A DNA stretch of 62,945 nucleotides, the filler included, from Candidatus Tectimicrobiota bacterium (lineage in GTDB: Bacteria > JACPSX01), in the NCBI GenBank assembly GCA_016193065.1. It is 6 parts of 6 records of this genome, joined end to end, with 100 filler letters (N's around TTAATTAATTAA, not from the genome) between each part and the next. Parts side by side here need not be neighbours in the genome. Positions count along the whole stretch, not along the records: positions 1 to 21,069 come from JACPSX010000001.1; 5 more parts are not named here. One strand, given 5' to 3'. Positions 18,427 through 58,431 of the stretch are shown here, in pieces; positions within the stretch are counted from its first letter, which is position 1, and the number at the start of each line of letters is the position of its first letter. Below the pieces are notes generated by a model. That model was not told the DNA's origin, ran no database searches, and saw only the letters and a program-made list of their open reading frames with translations. The position numbers and the translations under genes were made by a program.

Positions 18427-19602
18427 TTAACTGAAAAGCCTGTAGAGGAGACTAACAGCTCCCCCGCCCAGCACCAGCCAGGCGGAGTTCACCTTGAACC
18501 GAAACACACCGACCGTAGCAAGGATGAGGAGCGCTGCAGTGAACCAGTCGATTACAGACGCTCGCCCCAACTGCCAGGTGACGGTGGCCATCAGCGCCAG
18601 CGAGGCGACGTTGGCCCCGTCGAGAAACCCGCCGGCCCAAGGGGAATTTCGCAAACGCGGGATCAGGGGGCTGGAGGCGGCGACCAGAACAAAGGACGGG
18701 AAAAAGATGCCGACAGTCGCCAGAATCGCGCCCGGCCAGCCGGCGATCAGGTAGCCGATAAATGTGGCTGTGGTAAAGACGGGACCGGGAGTGAACTGTC
18801 CAACGGCTATCGCATCGATGAGCTGCTGGTCGGTGAGCCAGTGCCAGCGCTCCACCAGGTCAGCCCTCAGAAAGGCCAAGAGCACGTAGCCGCTGCCGAA
18901 CAGAATTGATCCGATTTTGAGGAAAAAACCGGTCAGCTTGAGCAGACTTATGGAGGCGCCGGCTGCAGCTCCTGTCGCCGCTTGAGCACCCGTGGCCGCC
19001 AGCAGCACCGGCCCGGCCATCACCCCCGCAGCGGCTTGTCGTGCCCGGCCCCGGCGCAAATTCGACAGGGCCATCACCAGGAAGGCGCTGGCAAACAGAA
19101 GGAAGACCTCGTTGATTCCGAGGAACGAGAGGATGGTCACGGCGATTCCAACGGCCCCCGTGAGCGACCCCTTCACCGCTTTCGTGCCAAGACTCCAGAG
19201 GGCCTGAAGGACAATGGCAATGATGACAGGCTTCACCCCGTAGAGGATCCAGACCGCTTGGGGGGCGGTGCCGTAGCGGGTGTAGGCCCAGGCTATGGCC
19301 AGCACGATTACCACGGCGGGAAGGATGAAGCAGGATCCAGCCGCAATGAGACCGCGCCAGCCGGCTCGGGTCAGGCCGATGTGGATGGCCATTTCCGTTG
19401 AGTTGGGGCCGGGGATGAGATTCGTTGCCCCGAGCAGGTCCAGAAATCGCTGCCGGGAGAGCCAGCCCCGGCGCCGCACCACCTCGTCCTCCATCATGGC
19501 GATGTGGGCGGCGGGTCCGCCGAAACCGATGGTCCCCAGCTTGAGAAACAGCCGGGCAATTTCTCCCAATCGGCCGGTGCCGTCGATGGGGTTCTGCCGC
19601 AA
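18427..19602 (-). CDS. chrA: Chromate efflux transporter
   Basis: FLKLGTIGFGGPAAHIAMM, IPGPNSTEMA, GQFTPGPV; TTG start after GAGGAGGT. Confidence 0.9.
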   Translation of the reverse strand: MRQNPIDGTGRLGEIARLFLKLGTIGFGGPAAHIAMMEDEVVRRRGWLSRQRFLDLLGATNLIPGPNSTEMAIHIGLTRAGWRGLIAAGSCFILPAVVIVLAIAWAYTRYGTAPQAVWILYGVKPVIIAIVLQALWSLGTKAVKGSLTGAVGIAVTILSFLGINEVFLLFASAFLVMALSNLRRGRARQAAAGVMAGPVLLAATGAQAATGAAAGASISLLKLTGFFLKIGSILFGSGYVLLAFLRADLVERWHWLTDQQLIDAIAVGQFTPGPVFTTATFIGYLIAGWPGAILATVGIFFPSFVLVAASSPLIPRLRNSPWAGGFLDGANVASLALMATVTWQLGRASVIDWFTAALLILATVGVFRFKVNSAWLVLGGGAVSLLYRLFS

Positions 19603-19669
19603 GTCAATTACCTCCTCTCGATCCAGGGCTGGCCGCTGATTGCTGACCGTATGCTTTCTCTGGTGAGTC

Positions 19670-20242
19670 TTACACCCACCCGTAGGGAATTCGGCTGCGG
19701 TACACTCTCCAGGCAAACAGGGCGGCTAGCACGATCAGAATAACTGTCAGCGAGGCTGCGAAACGTGAAACAACCTGAAGTCCCAACAGCACGGTGGTGA
19801 TCACCAGGAAGAGGCAGGTGGCTGCCAGCCGCTTCCGCCTGAGCCGCAGCGGGCCAATCTGGGCAGCGATTGCTTGGGGGAGAGCATCCCCTTCGGCCTT
19901 TGCCAGGAGCCCATCGATCTGGGGCTGGAGAGAGAAGTGGACCAACGAGAGGGTGAGGACCAGCAGGAGGAGAAACTTGACCAGGAGGATCCAGTTCGTA
20001 AACAGGGGGGTCAAAGACCCTTGCAGGCTGATGAGCAGAAGGCCCGTTGCCAGCGCAGTCAGCTGGAAAATGTAGCATCGGATTGAATTTCCCCGGATGA
20101 GGTTCTCAAAATACTGGTCCACCTGGAGGTGGGCCTTTCCGAACCGGGCCCTCTCGTTGACCACGACGAGATTGTAGAGAGGAGCCGCCATGAACACAAC
20201 CGTCAGGATGTGGAGAAACTTAAAAAAGTCATAGAGACTCAT
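19670..20242 (-). CDS. Hypothetical integral membrane protein
   Basis: About 5 hydrophobic segments; MSLYDFFKFLHIL start resembles DUF2269-type proteins. Confidence 0.7.
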   Translation of the reverse strand: MSLYDFFKFLHILTVVFMAAPLYNLVVVNERARFGKAHLQVDQYFENLIRGNSIRCYIFQLTALATGLLLISLQGSLTPLFTNWILLVKFLLLLVLTLSLVHFSLQPQIDGLLAKAEGDALPQAIAAQIGPLRLRRKRLAATCLFLVITTVLLGLQVVSRFAASLTVILIVLAALFAWRVYRSRIPYGWV

Positions 20243-20401
20243 CTGTCCCGCCCTCCCATCGGTTTCTCCTGTGGTCCTCGGAAAGAGTTCCACCGGAAGA
20301 CACTCTGATCTCCCTAAAAAGAGGAAAGAGGAGATTGCTAGAGGTCTTGACTTTTGCCCAGTTTAAGTGTCGACTGGTCAATCCTCAATGAGCCAAACTG
20401 C

Positions 20402-20608
20402 TCATTTTTCAGCCTTGTCCTTCACGCCTGCGGCCCGCAGGATCACCATGGACGGTCAGAAGTTCGTGAAGGCCGACTGGACCAAATTGATCCCCATCAG
20501 ACCGGTCAGCCAGAGCCACGCGGCATTGTGAAAGACCGCGAGGAGGACACTGGCTAGAACAACGATTCCTCCAAGCAGTCGAAGCCACTGTTCCATGTAA
20601 AGCTTCAT
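20402..20608 (-). CDS. DUF2892/YgaP-like small membrane protein, probable selenoprotein (UGA 20456-20458, residue 51)
   Basis: SD AAGGAGGTGA; MKLYMEQWLRLLGGIVVLASVLLAVFHNAAWLWLTGLMGINLVQSAFTNF-UGA-PSMVILRAAGVKDKAEK*; UGA at the family's C-P motif; absent from ORF track. Confidence 0.8.
20417..20453 (-). promoter_or_regulatory. SECIS-like hairpin of DUF2892 gene
   Basis: Minus strand GTCCATG..CCTGC-gggcc-GCAGG-CGT..GGAC; loop starts 20 nt after UGA with GG. Confidence 0.6.
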
Positions 20609-20658
20609 CTTCCCTCACCTCCTTTCTTCGATCCCCTGCCTACTGGGTCAGGCATGCC

Positions 20659-21069
20659 TTAGAAGGCGTAGCGGGTGACCACGTAGAGGTTCGCGTTCCC
20701 CTTAAACTGGCCAAACTCGGTGCGGCGCGGCCCGCCGAAGAGATTTACCCCGAAGGTGCCCGACAAGGCATCCGTGATGTTGTATCTAACCTCAGGGTTT
20801 ACATAGTAGTCCCCTTCGTTGGGGCTCGCCAGGGCAAAGAGGCCAAGCCTGAGCGTCTGGTGAAGGAAGAGCTGGGTCAGCCTGACAGTGAGGACGTGTC
20901 GGGCGGCCGGCCGCTCAGGCATCCCCGGGGCCCGCGTGCTTAGGTACTCCCGATGGTCCTCCATTACCTGGACATAGTACTGGGTAGAAAGTGTCAGGTC
21001 CGGCACGATCTCTCGCTGGTATCCAGCGAGGAACCTGACAGAGGAGTTCTTAACGGAAGGATTCCGGCC
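20659..21069 (-). CDS. Outer-membrane beta-barrel-like protein, C-terminal part (truncated by contig end)
   Basis: Frame open to the gap; alternating aromatic strands ending YVVTRYAF. Confidence 0.65.
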   Translation of the reverse strand, partial: GRNPSVKNSSVRFLAGYQREIVPDLTLSTQYYVQVMEDHREYLSTRAPGMPERPAARHVLTVRLTQLFLHQTLRLGLFALASPNEGDYYVNPEVRYNITDALSGTFGVNLFGGPRRTEFGQFKGNANLYVVTRYAF

Positions 21070-21169
21070 NNNNNNNNNNNNNNNNNNNNNNNNNNNNNNN
21101 NNNNNNNNNNNNNTTAATTAATTAANNNNNNNNNNNNNNNNNNNNNNNNNNNNNNNNNNNNNNNNNNNN
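21070..21169. other. Artificial contig linker
   Basis: N-run, TTAATTAATTAA, N-run; identical linkers at 32396, 37860, 48762 and 58141. Confidence 0.97.
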
Positions 21170-32395: not shown

Positions 32396-32495
32396 NNNNN
32401 NNNNNNNNNNNNNNNNNNNNNNNNNNNNNNNNNNNNNNNTTAATTAATTAANNNNNNNNNNNNNNNNNNNNNNNNNNNNNNNNNNNNNNNNNNNN

Positions 32496-35314: not shown

Positions 35315-36341
35315 TCATCCTGCCCCCCCACCCATCCCTTCCCCGCAACGGGGGGAGGGGAAGAAATTGAGGATCTCATACCATCCATTTCCCCACACGG
35401 CGTACTTCCCCACGTGCACGTGTTGCCCCAGGGTCAATAGAGGTAGAAACTCATCCAGGGTCCCTTCGTAGGTTCCCTCCNNNNNNNNNNNNNNNNNNNN
35501 NNNCGACAAACCCGGAAAGCTCATGCTCCAGATTCTGCTTGCGGGAGTAGCGGCTCCTCTCCTCCCAGTGAAAATCGGCCTGAGTGGAAATCACCTGCTC
35601 GGCCTTTTGACCAAATGCTTTGTGATCCATCTCCAGGGTTTCATCGCAATAGAAGTAGGCGAGGGAGTTCACCCGGTCGCGCAGGCGTTTGATGATCTGA
35701 TGGAACTCCGGCCGCTGGATGATTTGGCCATCGGCCTTGAGCACAGTAGGGGTCAAGAAACGGAGGGTGATTCGGGCGGGAGTTGACGAGGGAATCGAGG
35801 AGATAACCTCCTTATAACAAAACGAGGACGGCAGGTTCCGGACAAGCGCATCGCTCTCCCGGTAGATAATCCCGGCGGTCTGTTCCGAAAGATCCAGGCC
35901 GGAGATTTCCTGGAGGTCGAATCTTCCCTGCTTCGCCCCGATCCCAATGTTCCCCAGTTCACGGAAGGTCACGATGAAGTACGGGAGGTACTCGATGGCC
36001 TTTCCGATGAGGATGAGGTCGAAAGAAAAGGGGTGCTCCGGATCATATCGTGTCGCAGTTTCCAGAGGAGGTCGGATGATAAAAGGCCGGGGGATGTCCG
36101 CATTTTTCGAGAGGCGTTCGGCACCTTCCGGGGGAGCCGGTTCAAAAATCTGGCCGTAAGGGCAGCGGTCCTTGAGTCGGCAGGCCATCCCGCAGGCCCG
36201 AGGATCGACGCAGCTAAGACGCTTGAATACCGACCCGAAGGCGCCGCGCAGCGTGTTTCCCTTATTGTAAGCAGGCAGGAAGATCGGTTCCCTGGGAAGG
36301 AGATGAAAGCGGTACTGCGCCAGCCGAAAGCCTTTCAGCAT
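35315..36341 (-). CDS. cas6: CRISPR-associated RAMP endoribonuclease Cas6 (interrupted by N-gap 35481-35503)
   Basis: GNTLRGAFG, C..C....CPY, PRPFII, LRFLTP, and G-rich loop HVGKYAVWGNGWY after the gap. Confidence 0.85.
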
Positions 36342-37859: not shown

Positions 37860-37959
37860 NNNNNNNNNNNNNNNNNNNNNNNNNNNNNNNNNNNNNNNNN
37901 NNNTTAATTAATTAANNNNNNNNNNNNNNNNNNNNNNNNNNNNNNNNNNNNNNNNNNNN

Positions 37960-48761: not shown

Positions 48762-48861
48762 NNNNNNNNNNNNNNNNNNNNNNNNNNNNNNNNNNNNNNN
48801 NNNNNTTAATTAATTAANNNNNNNNNNNNNNNNNNNNNNNNNNNNNNNNNNNNNNNNNNNN

Positions 48862-58140: not shown

Positions 58141-58431
58141 NNNNNNNNNNNNNNNNNNNNNNNNNNNNNNNNNNNNNNNNNNNNTTAATTAATTAANNNN
58201 NNNNNNNNNNNNNNNNNNNNNNNNNNNNNNNNNNNNNNNNCACCACGCCCCGACCTCGCGTGGGTGTATCCCCGACCACATGAATATCGCGGCGAGGCTT
58301 CCCCCGAACAAAAGCAGGTAGCGAGGCACGACCGACTTCGATCTTTCCGCAATTACACCCCCACCAAGGGCCTACGCCTTGTCACCAAAGCCGCTGCGCG
58401 CCAACCGCGCTGCAAGGCAACATGTAGAGTC

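Follow-up and report, generated by a model that had tools for sequence, protein, structure and literature searches.

A probable 68-residue DUF2892/YgaP-like membrane selenoprotein with UGA at the conserved cysteine position

The locus and its read-through frame

The window, that is, the whole stretch of DNA analysed here, comprises 62,945 nucleotides from a Candidatus Tectimicrobiota bacterium (assembly GCA_016193065.1). It consists of contigs joined by spacers of the form N44-TTAATTAATTAA-N44 (21070-21169, 32396-32495, 37860-37959, 48762-48861 and 58141-58240), with an extra N23 at 35481-35503, and a gene neighbourhood is not readable across the joins. The gene under study lies close to the end of the first contig, together with the genes listed in Table 1. 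The beta-barrel-like gene upstream of it lacks its 5' end, because the contig ends at 21069. FecR-like and CHASE2-cyclase genes are found beyond 21170, but these belong to another contig and are ruled out as neighbours.

Table 1. Features of the locus; positions count along the window
Feature	Position	Strand	Basis
Probable selenoprotein gene, DUF2892/YgaP-like two-helix membrane protein	20402..20608	-	translation, PF11127 match, orthologues
Shine-Dalgarno sequence AAGGAGGTGA	20624..20615	-	read directly
In-frame UGA, codon 51, motif F-U-P, aligned with the family Cys-Pro	20458..20456	-	translation, homologue alignment
Candidate SECIS, upper stem-loop CCUGCG-GGC-CGCAGG	20441..20427	-	folding, conserved in 24 distinct sequences
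Possible extended SECIS, in which a lower stem (GUCC/GGAC) encloses the upper hairpin	20417..20455	-	folding
Upstream beta-barrel-like gene, 3' part, ends ...YAF	20659..21069	-	homologues upstream in related loci
DUF2269-like integral membrane protein gene	19670..20293	-	Pfam PF10027 3.1e-05, under gathering score
ChrA-type chromate transporter gene	18427..19716	-	PF02417 6.1e-85

The gene has 68 codons (20608..20405, minus strand), which begin with an ATG at 20608 and are followed by a final TGA stop at 20404..20402. The GGAGG core of its Shine-Dalgarno sequence ends 9 nt ahead of the ATG. The frame consists of 50 sense codons, a TGA, 17 further sense codons and the final TGA; around the recoding site it reads ...QSAFTNF, TGA, then PSMVILRAAGVKDKAEK, and then the final TGA. 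The read-through product, ...QSAFTNF-U-PSMVILRAAGVK..., has 68 residues with a basic tail, and its hydrophobic stretches, at about residues 9-26 and 31-49, represent two membrane segments. An earlier reading of this DNA, made from the sequence only, had described the frame, the Shine-Dalgarno sequence, the two transmembrane helices and the QSAFTNF-UGA junction, and all of these were found; the strand, which that reading did not name, is minus. It had also described the gene as uncalled, which is right for the full 68-aa frame and wrong for its first part, as a shortened product of 50 aa is present in the protein collection (P0005). A window-wide scan for other TGA read-through frames returned 234 raw candidates, which amount to noise.

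When the read-through frame is compared with Pfam, it scores 45.9 bits with PF11127 (YgaP-like_TM, DUF2892), for which the cut-off is 25.3 (E 6.1e-12). Since the match aligns residues 6-58 of the frame with model positions 9-59 of 66, and the TGA is codon 51, the match crosses the TGA. The profile search thus bears out the proposed DUF2892/YgaP-like assignment, and both the match and the downstream peptide show the family-like sequence to extend beyond the UGA, as had been suggested. In the NCBIfam collection, which includes selenoprotein models among others, no meaningful match to the read-through protein (P0001) was found at E up to 1; the only two matches, to HdeD and a MATE transporter, are at chance level.

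One solved structure of this family is that of the transmembrane domain of E. coli YgaP. The family profile finds it in the PDB (2mpn_A) at E 2e-4 over 58 residues, and a single-sequence PDB search gave nothing meaningful. In both, two transmembrane helices precede a small conserved motif and a short segment at the C-terminus. In YgaP, a rhodanese domain is fused to the transmembrane domain; in contrast, the protein described here stands alone at 68 aa, with no N-terminal rhodanese domain of the E. coli type and no second Pfam domain of any kind in the 68-codon frame; the gene upstream of the frame encodes an unrelated barrel protein. Furthermore, the residue of the 2mpn chain that aligns with Sec-51 is Ser, at a position where native YgaP presumably has Cys, and the gene belongs to a cluster of RND, LolA-like and barrel genes, which sets it apart from YgaP.

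An AlphaFold2 model of a natural Cys homologue (P0004) has helices at residues 3-24, 27-45 and 50-57, with a mean pLDDT of 69. In this model, Cys49 is located in a four-residue linker, and the conserved Pro opens the short helix 50-57. On the basis of this model and of the hydrophobic stretches in the selenoprotein itself, the protein is predicted to be a hairpin of two transmembrane helices of the PF11127 type. A Foldseek search of the P0004 model against the PDB gave no match at E 0.001 or better, and a homodimer prediction on the alignment of natural Cys forms returned 'no answer', with scores of 0.00.

Exchange of UGA and Cys codons, candidate SECIS and Sec machinery

To compare the residue at the UGA among relatives, two sets of data were used: a protein search that gave 52 relatives, 29 of which were fetched, and the best 80 genome loci and best 80 metagenome loci at the DNA level. 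Among the fetched database proteins, 12 of 29 stop exactly at ...QSAFTNF (48-50 aa); these include the window's own called product and one that its label assigns to DUF2892 and to an NC10 bacterium. Relatives of full length have Cys at the column following ...QSAFTNF, apart from two close ones with Ser (P0002) and Arg (P0003). The best 80 genome loci have TGA at this column in six cases and TGC/TGT in 74. All six TGA loci (L001-L005 and L007) come from MAGs labelled Methylomirabilota or Rokubacteria. The best 80 metagenome loci comprise 23 with TGA, 54 with Cys codons, one with GGA and two from which the motif is deleted. In both sets together, TGA is found in 29 loci and TGC/TGT in 128 of 160, and the Pro after the column is nearly invariant.

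The conserved C-P motif that the sequence-only reading had named for this site is therefore present in most of the fetched loci, and the two results that it had named as fatal, a TGA unique to this assembly and homologues without Cys at the column, were not obtained: besides the 29 other loci with TGA, the contigs of four groundwater runs (two studies) show a variant neither at 20456..20458 nor in the hairpin described below, and contain many differences elsewhere. That UGA-51 occupies the conserved Cys of the [F/W]-C-P motif is well supported by these alignments.

The exchange can also be seen within a narrow group. A second clade, for which a Syntrophobacterales MAG is typical, contains TGA forms (L105-L109 and L112) together with TGC forms (L006, L103 and L104), and the flanking protein sequence is almost identical between the two. 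In the phylum of the sister genome G001, a relative is found in 33 of 251 species genomes, and the in-frame TGA is present in seven full copies and one partial copy of high identity.

Even so, the TGA might be a true stop, in which case the product would be a 50-residue two-helix stump and the downstream part would be conserved but untranslated, for example as a regulatory hairpin, or else the gene would be decaying. Gene callers do give 50-aa products, and deletion and frameshift variants do occur: a short deletion removes ...IQSAFTNF-U in L115:3001-3132 and L116:248-379 (protein P0023), P0019 is frameshifted, and in L007:6001-6205 the N-terminal part is out of frame relative to its relatives, with the TGA and the downstream part intact, which is a frameshift or an assembly error. 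In addition, the column codon of L110 is GGA (Gly). Ser, Arg and Gly thus occur at the Sec column in close relatives, and the motif is deleted in two loci; the residue may be dispensable, or these variant copies may be decaying.

Against a true stop, however, stands the sequence past the TGA. The 29 TGA loci represent 23 distinct sequences, which together with the window form a 24-sequence alignment (A2). Throughout these 24 sequences, the peptide that follows the TGA, P-S-M-x-x-L-R-A-A-G-V-K, is conserved and free of indels, and codons for Pro, Ser, Lys and Glu differ synonymously. The peptide lines up with the C-terminal region of the Cys homologues, and this includes the Pro that follows the Cys. 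All 24 sequences have TGA as the internal stop, although the terminal stops vary among TAA, TAG and TGA. With the PF11127 match spanning the site and the Sec machinery in sister genomes (see below), we regard termination at this codon as very improbable.

Past the UGA, there is a candidate SECIS consisting of a G+C-rich stem of 6 bp and a 3-nt GGC loop. Because the 6-bp stem begins at 14 nt past the UGA, the loop starts with GG at 20 nt from it, exactly as had been proposed from the sequence. The 15-mer hairpin has a folding energy of -7.9 kcal/mol, and 4 of 200 shuffles fold equally well. [quoted passage not shown] The candidate lies within all four constraints of this permissive model (GGC, 6 bp, 20 nt and -7.9 kcal/mol). 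The hairpin may be extended by a lower stem to an element of 39 nt, which has -12.9 kcal/mol and a z of -0.31, not unusual when compared with shuffles; the lower stem is not kept in every relative.

The upper hairpin is conserved at the level of its pairs: five of the six core pairs of the stem are standard in 24 of 24 sequences, four being invariant, and the loop-closing pair is found in 19 of 24. In Methylomirabilota-type sequences, third codon positions are invariant inside the stem and variable in the flanks. A covariation test on the 24 sequences found no pairs changed on both sides (0), and its values were no better than those of shuffles. Close Cys forms (L006) keep an almost identical hairpin, and the hairpin encodes the conserved L-R-A-A-G, so that its conservation may be partly at the protein level. 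Stems of at least 5 bp are found in 99 of 117 Cys forms, so that Sec and Cys forms are not told apart by a crude test for the presence of a hairpin. Over the 48 nt past the codon, the MFE averages -17.5 in TGA forms (n=23) versus -10.5 in Cys forms (n=117), a difference to which G+C content may contribute. Between the candidate and the SECIS of the Sec-type selD genes of sister genomes, there is no obvious common motif.

Contig depth summed over runs X1, X3 and X4 is several-fold higher over 20422-20481 (from ...AFTNF to the hairpin) than over the rest of the gene, and in this interval contigs of many diverged strains still match at >=85%. This peak fits nucleotide-level constraint, contig depth being a weak measure of it. 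Altogether, we count the hairpin as SECIS-compatible and conserved; lying at the canonical distance, it can serve as a putative SECIS for SelB.

Neither a tRNA scan nor an Rfam scan of the window itself gave a match; the Sec machinery was examined in five sister genomes with the TGA form of the gene. In these five genomes, selB is above cut-off in three, selA is above cut-off in three, beside selB and tRNA-Sec, and tRNA-Sec is found in four, with the anticodon TCA as determined by ARAGORN. In four of the five, selD is above cut-off, in each case with one in-frame TGA at the active-site position. These selD loci (L166-L169, in genomes G003, G004, G001 and G005) are Sec-type, with ...AG-U-A[SC]K.... 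The two sister genomes with gaps in the Sec gene set are small, incomplete MAGs. Taken from these sister genomes, the presence of Sec machinery in the lineage of the selenoprotein is well supported.

Decoding of the UGA by a near-cognate tRNA (Cys or Trp) in place of Sec-tRNA would agree with a SECIS that has no covariation support, but we give it hardly any credence in view of the codon that is strictly TGA at a Cys column, the hairpin at SECIS distance, and the Sec machinery with Sec-type selD in sister genomes. The DUF2892 gene with its in-frame UGA is thus very probably a genuine selenoprotein gene.

Gene neighbourhood in the window and in related loci

The window's own contig provides only the barrel fragment, the DUF2269 gene and the ChrA gene as context. 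A beta-barrel gene upstream and a membrane protein gene and chrA downstream, as the sequence-only reading had it, are indeed present. The related loci support this context in part. In 22 loci, the gene immediately upstream of the small gene is a homologue of the barrel fragment (62-77% identical), and more distant homologues are present in five others; a full-length homologue has ~430 aa, ends in ...YAF, gives only a weak DUF1302 match, and is taken to be a beta-barrel. DUF2269 homologues adjoin the small gene in L003, L104, L105, L107-L110 and L112. ChrA, however, was not found beside the small gene in related loci and is not a conserved neighbour; it is a context seen in the window's contig only.

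Across the related loci, a recurring set of genes consists of an MMPL/HAE3-type RND transporter, a LolA_like (DUF1329-like) protein and the barrel, followed by the DUF2892 gene. In the deltaproteobacterial-type clade, the order is redoxin, DUF2269, DUF2892, RND, LolA-like and barrel; that is, the same genes are rearranged. Table 2 gives the number of loci in which each type of neighbour was found.

Table 2. Neighbours of the small gene in loci of the Sec and Cys forms; all counts are lower bounds because many loci have short flanks
Neighbour	Sec loci	Cys loci
Barrel	23/29	3/128
LolA-like	14/29	5/128
RND	13/29	8/128
SQR-like	7/29	1/128
DUF2269	6/29	1/128
Redoxin	4/29	2/128

The stand-alone Cys-type DUF2892 proteins (annotated 'YgaP family membrane protein', e.g. 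P0004, P0024 and P0049) are 45-67% identical to the selenoprotein, equal in length, and have the [F/W]-C-P motif at the same position. They differ in having Cys instead of Sec, and 120 of 128 of their loci are without RND, LolA-like or barrel neighbours. P0004 and L006, although Cys-type, share clade, hairpin sequence and RND cluster with the Sec forms.

Other genes beside the small gene contain in-frame TGA codons of their own. An SQR-like flavoprotein (Pyr_redox_2 + FCSD_central) is encoded directly downstream of it in L007:6882-8030 and L005:6202-7524, and the L007 gene has an in-frame TGA inside the aligned region, ...GDGY-U-ILEMGHG.... Among NCBIfam models, that of the type III SQR selenoprotein subtype fits the neighbour in L005 and L007 best; the score of 248 bits is under the cut-off of 525 bits, so that the neighbour is not a certified member of the model. 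This flavoprotein is a neighbour of the DUF2892 protein and no homologue of it, and the window's contig contains no counterpart. Its own in-frame TGA suggests a shared Se-dependent sulfide module.

Similarly, a ResA-like thioredoxin-fold protein in L006:5142-5585, with no obvious signal peptide, contains a U-x-x-C motif (FWKSL-U-GRC) in which the U is an in-frame TGA. Its gene immediately precedes the DUF2892 gene, be this of Cys or Sec type, and homologues are found in L103, L105 and L107-L109. In L003, an ArsR/SmtB regulator gene comes right after the small gene, and in L007 a DsrE-like protein is encoded upstream of the RND gene. The sulfur-handling neighbours that had been expected of this family are therefore seen in relatives, in the form of the SQR-like flavoprotein, the DsrE-like protein, the ResA-like redoxin and the ArsR/SmtB regulator.

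Proposed role and significance

We propose that the protein forms a helical hairpin with both termini in the cytoplasm. This topology follows the positive-inside rule and would be expected because both ends carry basic residues and the loop between the helices is neutral. In such an arrangement, Sec-51 would lie in the short linker after helix 2, at the cytoplasmic surface of the membrane, just before the Pro that opens the C-terminal helix (N-cap). A linker or N-cap at the membrane surface is a typical setting of a reactive chalcogen. The single Sec, which is Cys in relatives, would be the active residue of a membrane-anchored carrier for redox equivalents or sulfane sulfur (persulfide/selenosulfide). 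For the Sec subfamily, the partners would be the HAE3-type RND transporter, the LolA-like periplasmic protein and the beta-barrel of the cluster, and in many loci they may further include the DUF2269 protein, the TGA-containing SQR-like flavoprotein, or the ResA-like redoxin with U-x-x-C.

As a whole, this explanation, namely a 68-residue inner-membrane DUF2892 selenoprotein with the proposed anatomy and a redox or sulfane-sulfur role, appears likely to us. The relay of redox equivalents or sulfane sulfur as the specific function, to which the position of the residue, the Sec/Cys exchange and the gene context point, is a tentative assignment, with rather less than an even chance of being right.

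The same neighbourhood can be read in another way, in which the selenoprotein is a small accessory or redox-sensing subunit of the neighbouring HAE3-type RND exporter and Sec tunes export to the redox state. Other RND pumps have small membrane partners, such as AcrZ and MmpS. No neighbours are more constant than the RND, LolA-like and barrel genes, which occur in two gene orders, and the SQR-like gene is present in only seven of the 29 Sec loci. The link to the RND cluster is specific to the subfamily, since most of the distant Cys forms are without the cluster. However, the SQR-like count is itself a lower bound, as many loci are short-flanked, and the single chalcogen is conserved in a broad family that is often tied to sulfur genes, as in the rhodanese fusion of YgaP and in Azospira suillum, where the available text of PMC5358917 gives a DUF2892 gene as ~10-fold up under H2S. 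We consider the subunit role unlikely, but still worth keeping in mind.

Alternatively, the selenoprotein could bind soft metals or metalloids at the membrane face (Hg, As, Cu, Se or chromate-related ones), much as Cys/Sec sites do in selenoproteins for mercuric transport or Cu/Zn efflux. The ChrA gene two genes downstream in the window and the ArsR/SmtB-family regulator after the gene in L003 are in favour of this, and membrane metal-transport selenoproteins are listed in a 2026 inventory, as far as its available text goes (PMC13188914). On the other hand, each chain has a single chalcogen residue, ChrA is no conserved neighbour of the gene, and the ArsR neighbour occurs in one locus, which makes metal binding improbable.

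Returning to the redox or sulfane-sulfur carrier, a more detailed scheme can be drawn, although we rate it as a long shot. In this scheme, the Sec-DUF2892 protein would be the acceptor, at the membrane face, of zero-valent S (or Se) from the Sec-type SQR-like flavoprotein, and would pass it on as a selenosulfide/persulfide to the HAE3 RND, LolA-like and barrel proteins. The cluster would then provide a dedicated route across the envelope for the export of hydrophobic elemental sulfur, with the ResA-like (U-x-x-C) and DsrE-like proteins recycling the carrier. If true, Methylomirabilota and related deltaproteobacteria would have a module for sulfur export that depends on selenium.

Membrane selenoproteins of bacteria are known from other families. 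Those described in the available text of PMC13188914, i.e. the YeeE/YedE family, a putative mercuric transport protein, the SO_0444-family efflux transporter and the SaoP permease, are likewise integral to the membrane, have one Sec in the place of a Cys, and are predicted by Sec/Cys pairing, but they belong to unrelated families and are far larger than the 68-aa DUF2892 protein. Table 1 of this 2026 inventory gives 119 prokaryotic selenoprotein families and subfamilies with domain identifiers, and has no entry for PF11127, DUF2892 or YgaP among the 119 (PMC13188914). Similarly, the main texts of deep-Sep (PMC12013277) and BSepDB (PMC13326102) make no mention of PF11127, DUF2892 or YgaP. The sequence-only reading knew of no description of a Sec form, and in agreement with this, neither the full-text literature search nor the inventory table yielded a Sec form of DUF2892/YgaP; it may be listed, unvalidated, in candidate sets from groundwater MAGs. 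Such sets exist: as summarised in the available text of PMC13188914, Deng et al. 2026 predicted many candidate selenoproteins in groundwater MAGs, with 63 in one Methylomirabilota MAG, and very large selenoproteomes have recently been reported for Methylomirabilota.

Sec-type DUF2892 thus appears to be a family added to the prokaryotic selenoproteome, found by the classical signature of Sec/Cys pairs. It is very small, embedded in the membrane, and systematically shortened to 50 residues in public annotation. Replacement by Sec is a recognised pointer to catalytic or redox residues; for this reason, the Sec form offers a testable handle on the function of DUF2892, marking the conserved Cys of this widespread, uncharacterised DUF2892/YgaP-like domain as a probable catalytic or redox residue. 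One more selenoprotein family is in itself no great surprise. What the clustering with the TGA-containing SQR-like and ResA-like genes and with the RND, LolA-like and barrel set brings to light is more than that, since it points to a selenium-dependent membrane module that would contain multiple selenoproteins.
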